Positions 45,653-51,628 are shown, counted from the first letter of the stretch. The stretch is 64,000 nt of DNA from Pseudomonadota bacterium (GCA_040388905.1 JAZKAY010000002.1:188054-252053), one strand, 5' to 3'. The notes: generated by a model not told the origin, from the letters alone. Numbers and translations are program-made.

Positions 45653-46342
45653 ATGAGCCCTGATGCCCGCCCGGACGACAGACGTGTGCCTCTGGATGTC
45701 CTGATCGTCGAAGACGAGCCCTATCACATGGACAGGCTCTGCCAGAACCTGCAACTCGACAACAGCCTGGCGCTTGCTGGTGCGTTCTCAAGCGGCGGGG
45801 CAGCGCTGGATGCACTGGCGGAACTGCTGCCCGACGTGGCACTGGTGGACCTGGGTTTGCCCGACATGGATGGCTTTGAGCTGATCCGCCGAATACGTGC
45901 GCGCTGCCCCACAACAGACGTGCTGGTGGTGTCCGTATTTGGCTCTGAGTACCATCTGCTGCATGCGATAGAGGCGGGTGCTACGGGCTATCTGCTCAAG
46001 GATTCACCTGCGGCCGACTTCAATGCAGCCATCCATGCCGTGCATGCGGGGGAGTCACCCATCAGCCCTGCACTGGCGCGACACCTCCTTCGCCGCTGCG
46101 TCGGCATGGCGCCCAGCAATCCGTCGCCCGATCCCAAAGACGTGGGCTTGCTGTCGCAGCGCGAAACCGGCATTCTCGAAGCCATCGCGCGAGGTGACAG
46201 TCTTCCGGAGATCGGCCGCAAATTGTTCATCTCGCCGCACACGGTGAAAACCCACGTGAAGAATATCTACCGCAAGCTCGAAACACATACGCGGCATGAA
46301 GCCGTGCTGGTGGCCCGGCAACGAGGGCTCATCCACCCATGA
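45653..46342 (+). CDS. NarL/FixJ (LuxR-type HTH) family response regulator
   Basis: Receiver domain (VLIVEDEP...DLGLPDMDG) plus LuxR HTH (LSQRETGILEAIARGDSLPEIGRKLFISPHTVKTHVKNIYRKL). Confidence 0.9.
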   Translation: MSPDARPDDRRVPLDVLIVEDEPYHMDRLCQNLQLDNSLALAGAFSSGGAALDALAELLPDVALVDLGLPDMDGFELIRRIRARCPTTDVLVVSVFGSEYHLLHAIEAGATGYLLKDSPAADFNAAIHAVHAGESPISPALARHLLRRCVGMAPSNPSPDPKDVGLLSQRETGILEAIARGDSLPEIGRKLFISPHTVKTHVKNIYRKLETHTRHEAVLVARQRGLIHP

Positions 46343-48243
46343 GGTTCGTCAGGACAGTCGCCAGTCTTGCGCGTGAGATGTGGTCCGGGATGTCCTGCGC
46401 ATTGCTGTGCTGGCTCGTGGCTGTTGCACCGGCCATCGCGCAGGACACCACCGGCGTGATGCGCCTCACCCAAATGGAGTTCGTCAAGTCTGATGCGGAC
46501 CAGCCGCCGGCAAGCGGCTGGGCACAACAAACCCTGCCGGACAACTGGCGCATCTCCAGGCCAGGGGAATCCGGTTACGGCTGGTATCGCACCACCATCC
46601 AGATGCCACGGCAGCCCCCAACGGCCATGGGTCTGATGATCAGCCTGGTCAATACGACCTACGCCGTGTACGTCAACGGTGTTGAAACCGGCGACGGTGG
46701 CGGCATGACAGGCGAGATCAGGCGTAACGGCACGCAGCCGCAGTTCGTGGCGATTGCCCCGCAGGCTTTCCGCGCCGGGGAGAACACCCTGCATATACGC
46801 CTGCGTGTGGCACCCAACCTGCGCGGCGGCATGACCCCCGTGCTGCTGGGACCCCGCCAGGACATCGAGGCACTCTACGACACGGCTTATTTCTGGCGCG
46901 TCACGCTGACAAGGTCTGCCAACCTGGTACTGATCGTTGTTGGCCTGCTGGTCGGCCTGCTCTGGCTAAAACGCAGGCACCAGACCATCTACGGGTACTT
47001 TGCCGCGCTTGCCGTGTTGTGGTCGGTGCGCAACTTCCACTACACCTACAGCGGCAGCGGAATTCCCTCCCGACTTTGGGAAGCCTATGTACTGGGCAGC
47101 CTGGGCGTGGTGATGATGCTGGTATGGCTGTTCATGCTGCGCCTCACGCGCCAGGCCATGCCCCGTACCGAGCGTGTGGTCATCGTCTTTTGTCTGGCGG
47201 TGCCCGTTGTGTTTTTTGTCGCGGGCGAGAAGGTCATGAGCCAGTTGCGGCTGGGCTGGTATGGCGTCTGCACCGCGCTTGGTGTAGCCGCCATCGTGGT
47301 GCTGGCCAGGCATCTTCGCAGGCCCTATATCAAGAGTGGCCTGGGGCCATGGGTCATTCTTGCGGCCATGCTGCTGACCATGGGTTTCGGCCTGCATGAC
47401 TACGCCATCTCCGCAAGCCTGCTGCCCTACGGTTCGGCGGGCATGATGGCATTCGGGGCGCCGCTGTTGCTCGCAGCGCTGGTGTTCAACCTGGCGGCCG
47501 ACTATTTCAGCGCTTTTGAGTCGGTGGAAAAACTCAACGCCACGCTGGAGCGGCGTGTACAGGAGCGCAGCAACGAACTGCAGGCCACCTATGACCACAT
47601 GGCCGAACTGCAGCGCGTGGCTGCTGTCGCAGTTGAGCGCGAACGCCTGATGCGCGACATCCACGATGGCGTGGGCTCCCAGTTGATATCCGCCAAGACC
47701 AGCATGGAGCAGGGCGCGCTGTCGCATGTCGATGCGGCCAGCATGATAGGCCAGTGCATAGACGATCTCCGGCTGGTGATTGACTCGCTGGACCCTGAGC
47801 AGCGTCACGTTGCCGATGCATTGGCAACCCTTCGCTACCGGCTCGCACCCAAACTCTCGGCTGCGGGGATTGAGTCGTCATGGCAGATCAGCCAGAACCC
47901 CGTTCCGCTGGGGCCAGGCGCCATGCTTGACCTGGTGCGTATCGTGCAGGAGGCGCTGGCCAACATGCTCAAGCATTCCGGCGCGAGCCAGGTCTCGATA
48001 AGCTTCGATGCCAGTCCCGACGGCAACTGGAAACTGGAGATCACCGACGACGGCTGTGGACTGTCAACACCCCCCGGGTCTTCCGGGGGCGTGCCGGCAC
48101 AGCGCGGCCTTGCCAACATGAAGCGGCGCGCGACCAAACTCGATGCGCAGCTTGAATTGCACTCCAGACGCACGACAAGCCAGGTGGTCAACGGCACGAC
48201 GGTGTCGGTGACCTGTCTCAGGGCCACTCCGGTATTACCCTGA
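46339..48243 (+). CDS. sensor histidine kinase with a 7TMR-DISM-type input (extracytoplasmic DISMED2-like domain plus 7 TM), HisKA_3 and HATPase
   Basis: ATGA overlap with the regulator. GWAQQTLPDNW...GYGWYRTTIQMP, then ~7 hydrophobic helices, H-box IHDGVGSQL, and ATPase motifs (EALANMLKHSGA, DDGCG). Confidence 0.88.
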   Translation: MRFVRTVASLAREMWSGMSCALLCWLVAVAPAIAQDTTGVMRLTQMEFVKSDADQPPASGWAQQTLPDNWRISRPGESGYGWYRTTIQMPRQPPTAMGLMISLVNTTYAVYVNGVETGDGGGMTGEIRRNGTQPQFVAIAPQAFRAGENTLHIRLRVAPNLRGGMTPVLLGPRQDIEALYDTAYFWRVTLTRSANLVLIVVGLLVGLLWLKRRHQTIYGYFAALAVLWSVRNFHYTYSGSGIPSRLWEAYVLGSLGVVMMLVWLFMLRLTRQAMPRTERVVIVFCLAVPVVFFVAGEKVMSQLRLGWYGVCTALGVAAIVVLARHLRRPYIKSGLGPWVILAAMLLTMGFGLHDYAISASLLPYGSAGMMAFGAPLLLAALVFNLAADYFSAFESVEKLNATLERRVQERSNELQATYDHMAELQRVAAVAVERERLMRDIHDGVGSQLISAKTSMEQGALSHVDAASMIGQCIDDLRLVIDSLDPEQRHVADALATLRYRLAPKLSAAGIESSWQISQNPVPLGPGAMLDLVRIVQEALANMLKHSGASQVSISFDASPDGNWKLEITDDGCGLSTPPGSSGGVPAQRGLANMKRRATKLDAQLELHSRRTTSQVVNGTTVSVTCLRATPVLP

Positions 48244-48349
48244 CGGGGCGTAAATACCCTCTCAGGGGGATGGCCCGAATGCCCGCCAGCGCGTAGCCTT
48301 CAGCATCATCGACAACCGTATCGCGCGCACCGCGAAAAAGGGGGCTGAC

Positions 48350-50363: not shown

Positions 50364-50963
50364 ATGTTGAACCCGGACGAACGCGATTTCCTGCATCAGA
50401 CCTCGCTGCGCATTCCGACCGTGAACCGCGCACTGCTGCTCTACGTCACGCTGCTTGCAGGGTTCTGGGGCGGTCACAAGTTCCTGCTGGGAGCCCGGCG
50501 CGAGGGCTGGCTCTACCTGCTGCTGAGCTGGACTTCCCTCACCATCTGGATGGCCATAGGCGACTTCTTCGCCCTGTCGCGCCTGCCGGTTATTGGCCAG
50601 GGTTTCATGAAGCGGCGCGTTCTCAAGCGCCATCCGGCGGATGCCGATGTCATAGAAAAGGCAACGTGGTGGCGCCTGGTCCGCGTGATTCTGATCATGA
50701 TGCTGCTGATTGCCGGCATGGTGTGGATGATCAACCGGCTCAACGAAGGCAGCAAAAGGGTCGCCAGCCTGTGCGCGCAGATCAGGCCAGGCATGCCCGT
50801 GCAGGAGCTTGAAGCCTTCGCAGGTGCCAACGGCCTGCGGCTCGGCAAGGCACACGAGGGCTTCAACTCGCTGGCGGACACGGCAACCCTGGGGCGGCAC
50901 AGTTGCCACGTGTTGGTCGAGGCAGGCAGAGTCACGGAATCCAGCCACTACTTTATGGACTAG
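50364..50963 (+). CDS. TM2 domain-containing membrane protein
   Basis: LLLYVTLLAGFWGGHKFLLGARREGWLYLLLSW is the TM2-domain signature region. A third TM segment and a soluble C-terminal domain follow. Confidence 0.7.
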   Translation: MLNPDERDFLHQTSLRIPTVNRALLLYVTLLAGFWGGHKFLLGARREGWLYLLLSWTSLTIWMAIGDFFALSRLPVIGQGFMKRRVLKRHPADADVIEKATWWRLVRVILIMMLLIAGMVWMINRLNEGSKRVASLCAQIRPGMPVQELEAFAGANGLRLGKAHEGFNSLADTATLGRHSCHVLVEAGRVTESSHYFMD

Positions 50964-50974
50964 GAGTCTTCAAC

Positions 50975-51628
50975 ATGCAACTCATAACAGCGACAAATGG
51001 CCGGGGCACCTGTCAGCACTGCGACGCCACAACGGCGATTTGGCAGGTTGACCTGCGTTCCCGAGCACGTGTGGCGCTGCTCCTCGCGGCTATGTTCGCA
51101 CTGACACTGGCCAACGTGGTGCATGCCGCAGCATTTACAAAAGCCGGCGACTGTGTGGTTGGCAAACGTGTGGTCAACCGTGACAACCAGGCAGGCGTCA
51201 TTGTTTCCGCCGACGGAAGCAGTTGCAGGGTCAAGCTCGACGCCACAGGCAAGATCGACTACAACATCTTCTGGATGCTCAGCCCCGAAGGCCCAGGGGG
51301 TGGCGCCAAAGTATCTGGCGCAGCAGTAACAAAGACACCCCCCTCAGAGGGCAGTAGCGCAGGCACCATACCCACAGGCGTCTACAAATGCTACATGCTG
51401 GCAGGCACCACACTCAACTACGCCTTTATCGACATACATGTCACCGGCGGCAACCGCTACCGGGACAAGAGCGGCAAACCCGGCACATTTGCCGTAGATG
51501 GTGCGGGCAAGATCACCTTCACGGGGCCGCTGGCCGCTGCCAATGCCAAACTGCTGGCAGGCCCTCGCATAGGCCTGAACATGAGCGGCGGAAACTTCTA
51601 CAACACGACCTGCAGCATCAGCCGCTGA
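50975..51628 (+). CDS. hypothetical membrane-anchored/secreted protein (paralogous C-terminal domain)
   Basis: TAGGAG lies 8 nt before ATG 50975. Hydrophobic segment VALLLAAMFALTLANVVHA. The C-terminal ~85 aa align with those of 49756-50334. Confidence 0.65.
   Translation: MQLITATNGRGTCQHCDATTAIWQVDLRSRARVALLLAAMFALTLANVVHAAAFTKAGDCVVGKRVVNRDNQAGVIVSADGSSCRVKLDATGKIDYNIFWMLSPEGPGGGAKVSGAAVTKTPPSEGSSAGTIPTGVYKCYMLAGTTLNYAFIDIHVTGGNRYRDKSGKPGTFAVDGAGKITFTGPLAAANAKLLAGPRIGLNMSGGNFYNTTCSISR

Follow-up and report, generated by a model that had tools for sequence, protein, structure and literature searches.

What does a two-component system do for the six genes of exported and membrane proteins that stand behind it, and are these genes under its control? 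The question is raised by positions 45,653 to 51,628 of a 64,000-nucleotide (nt) stretch of DNA from a Pseudomonadota bacterium (GCA_040388905.1, JAZKAY010000002.1:188054-252053; the whole stretch is referred to as the window). Here the genes for a NarL/FixJ-type response regulator (RR) and a sensor histidine kinase (HK) are followed by six co-directional genes, g1 to g6, which we call the cargo. The original prediction regarded the locus as a self-contained envelope or surface module. The self-contained character is borne out, with a sensor, a regulator, an exported lectin, and membrane and periplasmic proteins encoded together. The reading that we favour, with moderate confidence, is an autoregulated two-component envelope regulon, in which RR would activate its own operon as well as g1-g6 from operator boxes with a 7-2-7 geometry. 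The regulatory wiring and the localisation of the products are the parts of this reading that the comparison of sequences supports well.

We begin by considering how often the arrangement occurs. The related loci were collected via g6, g1 and the kinase and were screened with hidden Markov models (HMMs) built from the window proteins; a scan of metagenome contigs gave only 14 further loci, mostly short. Versions of the module were seen in at least 12 genomic contexts, spread over Beta- and Alphaproteobacteria (Table 1); the window itself matches a Polaromonas-like MAG (GCA_040384165.1). Because the same families adjoin the same two-component system in many unrelated chromosomal contexts, the arrangement of the two-component system with its cargo is far beyond chance. 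As judged from these loci, the constant element is the NarL-type regulator with its seven-transmembrane kinase, and the cargo is a mix-and-match of g3, g4/g6, TM2 and octapeptide-tail proteins that sometimes includes proteases or large unknown proteins. The co-conservation proposed earlier therefore holds for the module with this two-component system and not for a fixed set of six genes travelling together: orthologues of g2 are found only in L003 and L012, which are close Polaromonas relatives, and g1, g3, g5 and g6 are each missing from some versions.

The next question is what the upstream regions of these loci share. Across the loci, the region before the first cargo gene contains the motif AATACC-N7-GGGGAT, whose sole exact copy in the window is the cargo-operon dyad AATACCCTCTCAGGGGGAT. 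The regulator-proximal dyad CATACCCCGCCGGGGGGAT has the second-best position weight matrix (PWM) score in the window (23.2), and a third PWM site (10308-10326), lying within a long open reading frame (ORF), is probably due to chance. The cargo box is in the same place in L003, L005, L012, L020, L025-27, L029, L042 and L047, 10 or more loci that take in the other Burkholderiales and Ferrovibrio, and L046 and L048 have weaker variants of it (AATACTCC...). An equivalent stands upstream of the RR gene in L003, L005, L025, L029 and L047. The number of boxes follows the orientation of the genes: where they are co-directional, a second box precedes the RR gene, and where they are divergent there is a single one, in the intergenic region shared by RR and the cargo. 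Extra cargo genes can have a box of their own, as do those for a 227-amino-acid (aa) protein in L023 and a 230-aa protein in L047.

Read as TACCCCN-NN-NGGGG[G/T]A, the box is a pair of inverted heptamers in a 7-2-7 arrangement that nearly coincides with TACCCCTAAAGGGGTA, a 7-2-7 site engineered for high affinity to NarL (PMC4549865). NarL sites of this type at -38 to -49 activate the napF and yeaR promoters (PMC4549865). A terminator or RNA hairpin was rejected as an account of the box: a U-tract is lacking, divergent genes have the box between their start codons, and L026 and L023 lose the inner stem pairing yet keep the outer ATACC/GG.AT bases.

The position of the box can be compared with that of a putative promoter. 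In an alignment of nine upstream regions that are otherwise unalignable (A6), most invariant columns belong either to the box or to a TAnnnT hexamer, the A and T of which are invariant at a fixed distance in the nine loci. The spacing of the hexamer from the box is 22(-23) nt, which puts the centre of the box near -43/-44. The same TAnnnT-N6/7-ATG geometry precedes the RR gene in L003, L005, L025, L029, L020, L042 and L023. The RR start codon has no Shine-Dalgarno sequence, either in the window or in the compared loci, and g1 has a strong one (AAGGGGG). A hexamer so close to the ATG (6-7 nt) and the missing Shine-Dalgarno sequence make a leaderless RR mRNA probable, and the comparison suggests that a leaderless mRNA of the regulator-kinase operon, which is uncommon in Proteobacteria, is conserved across the loci. 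Boxes placed before both the RR gene and the cargo operon are what would be predicted if expression depends on the adjacent RR.

Combining the operator with the gene order, we can outline how the module may work. HK would respond to a cue from outside the cytoplasm, for which a glycan or a signal derived from the envelope is the likeliest candidate. Phosphorylated RR would dimerise on both boxes (centre near -43) and act as a class-II-type activator, raising its own expression, probably from the leaderless mRNA, and switching on g1-g6 as a single transcript. The cargo proteins would be Sec-exported or reside in the inner membrane and would work on its periplasmic side, g5 physically together with g6. 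The set would be modular: lineages would exchange its members while keeping the sensor, the regulator and the operator.

Table 1. Features of the locus (positions in the window) and composition of the related loci; MAG, metagenome-assembled genome; TM, transmembrane; HTH, helix-turn-helix; TRF, Tandem Repeats Finder; AF2, AlphaFold2; <> marks divergent genes.
Feature or locus	Position	Strand	Placement or context	Description, composition or basis
Regulator-proximal 7-2-7 dyad CATACCCCGCCGGGGGGAT	45600-45618		within the final thiE codons, 34 nt before RR ATG	one mismatch to AATACC-N7-GGGGAT
-10-like hexamer TAGGGT	45641-45646	+	22 nt past RR box, 6 nt before RR ATG	
RR	45653-46342	+		NarL/FixJ-type response regulator (REC + GerE HTH), 229 aa; Pfam, NCBIfam
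HK	46339-48243	+	gap to RR -4 nt (ATGA overlap)	sensor histidine kinase, 634 aa
Cargo-operon 7-2-7 dyad AATACCCTCTCAGGGGGAT	48253-48271		10 nt past HK stop	TACCCTC-TC-AGGGGGA; exact AATACC-N7-GGGGAT
-10-like hexamer TAGCCT	48294-48299	+	22 nt past cargo box	
g1	48350-48982	+	106 nt after HK	ricin-B (R-type) lectin with octapeptide tail; Pfam, TRF
g2	48991-49338	+	8 nt after g1	single-pass membrane protein, TM segment 18-36
g3	49402-49752	+	63 nt after g2	small secreted protein, new family; family alignment
g4	49756-50334	+	3 nt after g3	secreted two-domain protein, four Cys; hhalign
g5	50364-50963	+	29 nt after g4	three-TM protein with TM2 hairpin; Pfam, hydropathy
g6	50975-51628	+	11 nt after g5	exported or anchored SH3/KOW-like and beta-barrel protein; AF2, Foldseek
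L003			Polaromonas, beside thiE	full set
L012			Polaromonas	RR-HK-g1-g2-g4(C-domain only)-g5-g6
L005			Betaproteobacteria MAG	RR-HK-g1-...-g6
L025-27			yjeF/DAO slot	RR-HK-g3-g4-g6
L029			metagenome contig	RR-HK-g3-TM2-g6
L023/24			yjeF/DAO slot	HK-hydrolase-(227 aa)-RR <> g3-g4(stub)-g5-g6-(73 aa)
L020			lutABC/greA	HK-hydrolase-RR <> g1-g4-TM2::g6
L042			Ferrovibrio (Alphaproteobacteria)	HK-hydrolase-RR <> g1-g4-TM2
L047			Ramlibacter MAG, yjeF/DAO slot	RR-HK-g3-TM2-(Zn-ribbon/TM stub)-230 aa
L048			metagenome contig	RR-HK-g1-737 aa-532 aa
L046			Ramlibacter sp. USB13	RR-HK-127-aa protein (different head, same-type octapeptide tail)
L045			Caenimonas terrae	RR-HK-g3-like-secreted protease
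L043			Sphingomonas	g4 adjoining g1, beside a LytS/LytTR pair

A single cargo transcript fits with the gene map, in which the eight genes and every spacer proposed earlier were recovered from the ORF listing and the junction sequences. The cargo gaps are all at most 63 nt, a scan for terminator-like sites gave none on the + strand between 48244 and 51628, and the GC content at third codon positions is 0.68-0.81 across all eight genes. The spacer between g2 and g3 (49339-49401, 63 nt) has a GC-rich inverted repeat, GCCCCGC...GCGGGC, with a T-run some distance on; it is non-canonical as a terminator and could modulate expression within the operon. As had been claimed, the hydropathy scan gave, at the N-terminus of every product, a hydrophobic signal or a TM segment. 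The Cys residues are paired in all the exported products of the cluster.

We turn our attention to the two signalling proteins. RR has a receiver domain (Pfam Response_reg, E 2.3e-21, profile positions 1-110 of 111), in which the motifs IVEDE, VALVDLGLPD and YLLKD were read by eye, and a C-terminal HTH (Pfam GerE, E 1.2e-17, positions 3-57 of 57). In NCBIfam it comes closest to MadR (E 1.1e-36) and to NarL (E 1.4e-36), in each case well under the cut-off; the score is 125.7 bits for NarL (cut-off 250) and 98.5 for NarP (cut-off 343). By these profiles RR is of the same class as NarL and is not a NarL orthologue. HK is composed of an N-terminal signal or anchor, a periplasmic domain of about 155 aa (residues ~35-190), seven hydrophobic segments, HisKA_3 and HATPase_c. 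Six of the segments, between residues 193 and 387, are at or above the threshold of the hydropathy scan, and the seventh (~217-237) is weaker, unflagged by the scan and seen by eye only. HK orthologues match the 7TMR-DISM family PF07695 with 22.3 and 28.1 bits (cut-off 29, positions 12-197 of 205), and precomputed matches to it are on record for several relatives and for the Ferrovibrio orthologue, the last one unmarked (E<=1e-5). When a profile was built from the periplasmic domains of seven HK orthologues, its match in the PDB was the sugar-binding domain at the N-terminus of GH2 glycosidases (E 2.4e-5), a likeness to a carbohydrate-binding beta-sandwich that holds at the fold level only. 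The DISMED1 and DISMED2 families match none of these seven domains at E<=10, where the matches are weak galactose-binding-like ones only, and in a search of PDB sequences HK was matched in its catalytic domain alone. We place HK as a below-threshold member that is 7TMR-DISM-like in architecture, with a predicted ectodomain of the carbohydrate-binding-module type.

Of the cargo, g1 is the most easily recognised. The lectin domain matches PF00652 (Ricin_B_lectin) with 55.5 bits against a cut-off of 29 (residues 33-141), and the orthologues match too. The (IVAGGAGN)4 tail described in the original prediction is equally clear, as a 24-nt period in 4.0 copies (48884-48979) with which the protein ends, ...AGGAGN. 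One QxW motif is evident (AQIWKL), and two or three are kept in some orthologues. From its R-type lectin fold g1 is predicted to bind a glycan, and it is probably Sec-exported. The lectin orthologues, 31-35% identical in the trefoil, all have 4-6 copies of N-[IV]-[IV]-[AS]-G-G-[AG]-G, and the tails of the Betaproteobacteria and Ferrovibrio lectins end exactly in ...AGGAGN. The octapeptide repeat, LIANDGAS-type variants included, is also carried by Sphingomonas and Brevundimonas lectins and by DUF4214-like and other heads, some of which are Bacteroidota-like proteins. Written as N-[IVL]-[IV]-[AS]-G-G-[AG]-G, it is a free-standing module (carriers P0129, P0142, P0152, P0165 and L046 7980-8363), and P0142 is a secreted protein of 122 aa made of the repeat only. 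The tail matches no Pfam family at E<=1, and IVAGGAGN was not found in the literature searched. An RTX, ice-nucleation or glycine-zipper repeat is excluded by the 8-residue period together with the lack of a Pfam match. The plasmid collection contained no homologue of g1 or g6, so it gave no sign of carriage on mobile elements.

We next consider the family of g4 and g6. The homologues of g6 form 60 clusters among 5.8 billion proteins and 273 representatives at E<=1e-3 among 1.84 billion, and their alignment (A1) has four invariant Cys and two conserved blocks with a low-complexity linker between them. The first domain (~55-103) is SH3/KOW-like: the AF2 model has a predicted local distance difference test score (pLDDT) above 90 and superposes on Spt5 KOW5 with a root-mean-square deviation of 1.2-1.5 A over 47-49 residues at probability 1.0, the Foldseek E being weak (0.05-0.1) and the likeness one of fold alone. 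The C-terminal part (~130-217), modelled alone, is a small beta-barrel of nine strands (pLDDT 89, predicted template modelling score 0.77). The barrel has no significant neighbour among solved structures (best Foldseek E 0.15); the weak ones include potempin E (TM-score 0.53-0.55, E 0.5) and the cathepsin C exclusion domain (TM-score ~0.5), and a lipocalin, MliC or potempin-type inhibitor was dropped for want of a significant Foldseek match. A search of PDB sequences with g6 gave only a spurious T-cell-receptor V-domain and weak KOW matches. An AxA site lies past the hydrophobic segment, so that g6, which was taken for a membrane-anchored protein and does have the segment, may be cleaved rather than anchored.

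The relation between g4 and g6 is weak pairwise (BLASTP E 0.004 over 46 aa) and strong by profile (hhalign of A7 against A1: probability 98.1%, E 1e-13, 139 columns; HMM cross-matches down to 9e-26). The C-terminal domains had been recognised as paralogous, and the alignment extends this to both domains: by these profiles, g4 and g6 are full-length paralogues, each with an SH3/KOW-like domain and a disulphide-bonded small beta-barrel. Orthologues of g4 also occur in Ferrovibrio and Sphingomonas. All the g4-type proteins (window, L020, L023, L025, L031, L042, L043) end in G-[RK]-W-COOH, as does an 88-aa stub that has only part of the barrel, and this end suggests a C-terminal recognition motif. 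The family also has variants with extra SH3-like copies, a TonB_C fusion, an N-terminal CxxC...CxxC ribbon with a TM segment, or an N-terminal TM2 fusion. The Zn-ribbon-TM variants were considered as anti-sigma factors and rejected, there being no gene for an extracytoplasmic-function sigma factor nearby and the motif not being of the ZAS type. The TM2::g6 fusions are natural and fall into four independent clusters (P0030, P0033, P0037, P0038). Because of these fusions in other genomes, g5 and g6 are probably working partners on the periplasmic side of the inner membrane.

By hydropathy, charge and alignment (A3), g5 has a TM2 hairpin, a basic cytoplasmic loop, a third TM segment and a periplasmic domain with two Cys. 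Its description as a TM2-domain protein stands on the two-helix hairpin (hydrophobic segments 24-42 and 52-70 with a conserved GxHKF-LG loop) and on the orthologues and fusions, which have unmarked recorded TM2 matches (E<=1e-5); its own Pfam score, 26.2 bits (E 9e-6), is under the cut-off of 27.9, and there is no match in the PDB. The most conserved part, from Polaromonas to Ferrovibrio, is the membrane hairpin with the cytoplasmic loop and the N-terminal EREFLHQTS motif. The periplasmic part may be a 2-Cys domain, a g6 domain or absent, the protein being essentially TM-only in L029, L042 and L047, and it therefore appears to be dispensable. The family of g3, present in L003, L023, L025-27, L029, L031, L045 and L047, has an invariant, His-rich core, PH-AV[KR]HA--VDAP[VL]RGRG--LC (A4). 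The protein is small and secreted, as had been said, and of its four Cys two alone are invariant in the family. It has no Pfam match and nothing meaningful in the PDB, and it was rejected as a lipoprotein, the VSAC motif of the window protein not being kept in orthologues. In g2, a small beta-rich C-terminal domain and a basic tail complete the protein. Searches of Pfam, NCBIfam, PADLOC and PHROGs with all eight proteins and with the cargo of the related loci returned only REC, GerE, HisKA_3, HATPase_c, ricin-B and TM2; g2, g3, g4 and g6 have no family in these collections. Together with the PDB sequence and fold searches, this agrees with the earlier statement that no family could be named beyond the lectin fold and TM2.

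What, then, is sensed, and where would the cargo act? Because carbohydrate-binding folds are found in both the HK ectodomain and g1, and an exported alpha/beta-hydrolase in the Ferrovibrio-type two-component operons, we infer that the cue or the target of the module is related to a glycan. Our guess for the output is the binding, protection or remodelling of an envelope glycan. The earlier description as a surface module is less likely than a periplasmic or inner-membrane one because no outer-membrane route is encoded in the cluster.

Several observations weigh against the autoregulated regulon or parts of it. The operator and the promoters are predictions from comparative sequence, and a generic sigma-70 scan gave no promoter in 44900-52000, a result that is expected of activator-dependent promoters and lends them no support. 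The regulator-proximal box is within the thiE coding sequence, and a terminator-like hairpin of thiE (45620-45635) occupies the 22-nt spacer between the box and the -10 hexamer; terminator and activator-dependent promoter are thus interleaved at 45600-45653, an unusual layout. The HK of the window has no Pfam 7TMR-DISM match at E<=1, which leaves its original naming as a 7TMR-DISM kinase borderline, with the orthologue matches to PF07695 and the fold-level likeness of the periplasmic domain to GH2 sugar-binding domains on its side. The cargo is not constant, some related two-component pairs having one of the families or wholly different proteins. The distant homologues of g6 (<=48% identity; Nevskiales, Bryobacterales and others) are solitary, with no related two-component system within 9-10 kb, so g6 does not need this regulator.

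A bolder form of the proposal, which we put forward tentatively and consider doubtful as a whole, is that the locus represents an undescribed, horizontally exchanged system of sensor, operator and interchangeable exported cargo. It would comprise a glycan-sensing seven-TM kinase, new envelope families (g4/g6, g3 and an (N-I/V-V/I-A-G-G-A-G)n tail that tags lectins and other heads) and a TM2 hairpin as the membrane partner of the kinase or the cargo. If it holds, it would give the bacterial TM2 domain its first functional context and define a new repeat fold.

Could the cargo instead be part of the sensing? It is possible, and in our judgement unlikely, that the cargo proteins are accessory sensing or feedback parts, with g5, alone or with g6, docking on the seven-TM domain of HK and g4/g6 and the lectin delivering or masking the ligand. 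Such an arrangement would resemble MgrB-PhoQ, LiaF-LiaS, CpxP-CpxA and the kinases that depend on periplasmic binding proteins; it is compatible with RR-dependent transcription and adds a feedback loop to it. The membrane hairpin, cytoplasmic loop and EREFLHQTS motif of g5 are the parts conserved, its periplasmic domain being variable, the lectin and the periplasmic domain of HK both have carbohydrate-binding folds, and TM2 proteins and g4/g6 are the commonest companions of this kinase family. None of them can be obligatory for signalling, however, since related kinases occur without TM2, g4 or g6 nearby (L045, L046, L048), and g6 homologues are found alone in genomes without this kinase nearby.

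The patchy distribution of the autoregulated regulon, which suggests horizontal transfer between Beta- and Alphaproteobacteria, and the different versions in one chromosomal slot could also be those of a competition or defence cassette. The tail-bearing lectin would then be a secreted, glycan-targeted, membrane-active effector, the TM2 and beta-barrel proteins would be immunity proteins or inhibitors, and the two-component system would sense foreign cells or grazers. We consider this improbable. The modularity, with the same tail on different heads, would suit it, and the solitary g6 homologues resemble orphan immunity genes; the presence/absence table, however, has no strict effector-immunity pairs, tail proteins occurring without TM2, g4 and g6 (L046, L048) and the reverse in L023, L025, L029 and L047. 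The protease inhibitor potempin E is among the weak fold neighbours of the g6 barrel (TM-score ~0.53-0.55), but the Foldseek E values are at least 0.15 and not significant. One related two-component system carries a secreted lysyl-endopeptidase-like protease; the searches gave no toxin domain, no dedicated secretion system and no PHROG match of known function. There is no PADLOC match for the cargo or the kinase, the generic REC and HTH domains of the regulator matching weakly, and there are no homologues in the plasmid collection.

The octapeptide tails raise one more possibility, to which we give little weight: that they polymerise into a beta-solenoid or amyloid-like fibre displaying lectin heads, with the small periplasmic proteins as chaperones or nucleators and RR in the role of CsgD. 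RR is of the LuxR/GerE class like CsgD and matches the NCBIfam CsgD HTH (E 7e-14), the Gly/Asn-rich repeats strictly keep their register and their C-terminus across very divergent heads, and the repeat-only protein P0142 exists. Against a matrix or fibre, no version of the cluster has a CsgG- or FapF-like outer-membrane channel in it or near it, there are only 4-6 repeats of 8 residues without a Pfam curlin, Fap or RTX match, and many versions of the module have no tail protein. That the two-component system and the six genes are chance neighbours, with the palindromes as terminators or hairpins of the repetitive extragenic palindromic type, is disfavoured and very improbable: the box is GC-rich and in co-directional loci follows the HK stop, where a terminator could sit, but the families recur with the same two-component system in unrelated contexts in two proteobacterial classes, the divergent loci have the box between two start codons, where no terminator is needed, the box has no U-tract, a second box lies upstream of the RR gene, and the outer bases outlast the stem pairing in L026 and L023.

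Some further features of the locus and its relatives may be recorded here. The slot flanked by yjeF and a DAO-oxidoreductase/amidase gene pair, by rpsB-tsf, holds three versions of the module that differ in composition and orientation (L023 2426-8782, L025 4449-8549, L047 5336-9753), which suggests an insertion hot spot with repeated replacement of the module. The secreted family of 227-230 aa (L023 5262-5945, L047 9061-9753), each member with its own operator box, is probably a further interchangeable member of the regulon. The alpha/beta-hydrolase gene of the Ferrovibrio-type versions lies between the kinase and regulator genes (L020 5004-5855, L023 4288-5151, L042 5355-6197), and the two-component operon of the window has no such gene. 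Directly upstream of the module, the thiC-thiO-thiS-thiG-thiE operon, preceded by a thiamine pyrophosphate riboswitch (Rfam RF00059, 71.5 bits, 40725-40836, +), ends at 45621. Downstream, a czcCBA-like resistance-nodulation-division efflux operon (51638-57418, -) is convergent with g6 and lies only 9 nt past its stop codon, and beyond it are an OmpR-type two-component system and an OprB-like porin (58227-61137, +); the efflux operon, this two-component system and the porin are missing from other versions of the module and are thus probably unrelated to it. Inside g6, on the opposite strand (51336-51353, -), is a hairpin CCCTCTGAGGGGGG followed by T-rich sequence. Its core resembles the operator box, its PWM score is below the reporting threshold (11), and it lies ~285 nt downstream of the czcA stop; it is probably a coincidence or a distal terminator.

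The module is a good, well-delimited experimental target rather than a surprising mechanism. Its regulatory logic is of a known kind, and what is new are the cargo families without annotation and the repeat module. The predicted operator, promoters and small, delimited regulon offer an entry point to the unannotated families (g3, g4/g6, the octapeptide tail and the 227/230-aa proteins), and a bacterial TM2 protein gains a place in a delimited genetic circuit and, through natural fusions, a periplasmic partner. If HK senses a glycan, it would be a ligand-defined addition to the poorly understood 7TMR-DISM-like sensors. Ramlibacter sp. USB13, Caenimonas terrae, Variovorax terrae, Ferrovibrio sp. 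and Sphingomonas soli are cultured strains with related versions of the module, so that work on the predictions need not wait for a culture of the window organism.

How does the module compare with known systems? Like NarX/NarQ-NarL (NarP) of Escherichia coli, it encodes a HisKA_3-type kinase and a REC-GerE regulator together, and its inverted TACCCC-type heptamers are 2 bp apart and lie at about -40 to -49, the region used at napF and yeaR. The sensors are unrelated, NarX and NarQ having two TM segments, a P-box and HAMP and the module kinase a periplasmic jelly-roll and seven TM segments, and the genes under predicted control are unconnected to anaerobic respiration. With the 7TMR-DISM receptors RetS, LadS and NicD of Pseudomonas aeruginosa, HK shares a carbohydrate-binding-module-like beta-sandwich, seven TM segments and a cytoplasmic signalling module. 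It differs from them in being under the Pfam thresholds for PF07695 and DISMED and in having a dedicated adjacent operator and cargo operon; its output is a simple HisKA_3 kinase with a NarL-type regulator and not a hybrid kinase or a diguanylate cyclase.

In PhoQ-MgrB, LiaFSR and CpxAR-CpxP, as here, small membrane or periplasmic proteins stand beside a two-component system, in the present case under its predicted control, and the conserved membrane and cytoplasmic-loop core of g5 would suit a partner of the kinase. There is no relation to them in sequence or fold, and related kinases occur without these cargo proteins. The curli operons (csgD/csgBAC/csgEFG) and those of other functional amyloids likewise combine a LuxR/GerE-class regulator, Sec-exported Gly/Asn-rich short repeats and small non-enzymatic periplasmic proteins. 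The module differs in its 8-residue repeat of 4-6 copies on a lectin head, with no Pfam curlin match, and in having no outer-membrane channel; neither a CsgG- or FapF-type channel nor a nucleator was found in the window cluster or in any related locus. The RTX repeat (GGxGxDxUx) resembles the g1 tail in that an exported protein has, close to its C-terminus, Gly-rich turns (GGAGN) alternating with a hydrophobic strand of three residues (IVA), with LIANDGAS among the variants, but the tail has a period of 8 (24 nt) rather than 9, no conserved Asp in the main unit, a Sec and not a type I signal, and no HemolysinCabind match. The TM2 domain (PF05154) is conserved from bacteria to humans and to our knowledge has no established molecular function, and we know of none for any bacterial TM2 protein. 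With the TM2 proteins, among them eukaryotic TM2D1-3 and bacterial and phage members, g5 shares the two-helix hairpin and the GxHKF-LG loop, to which it adds a basic loop, a third TM segment, interchangeable periplasmic domains and a predicted membership in a regulon.

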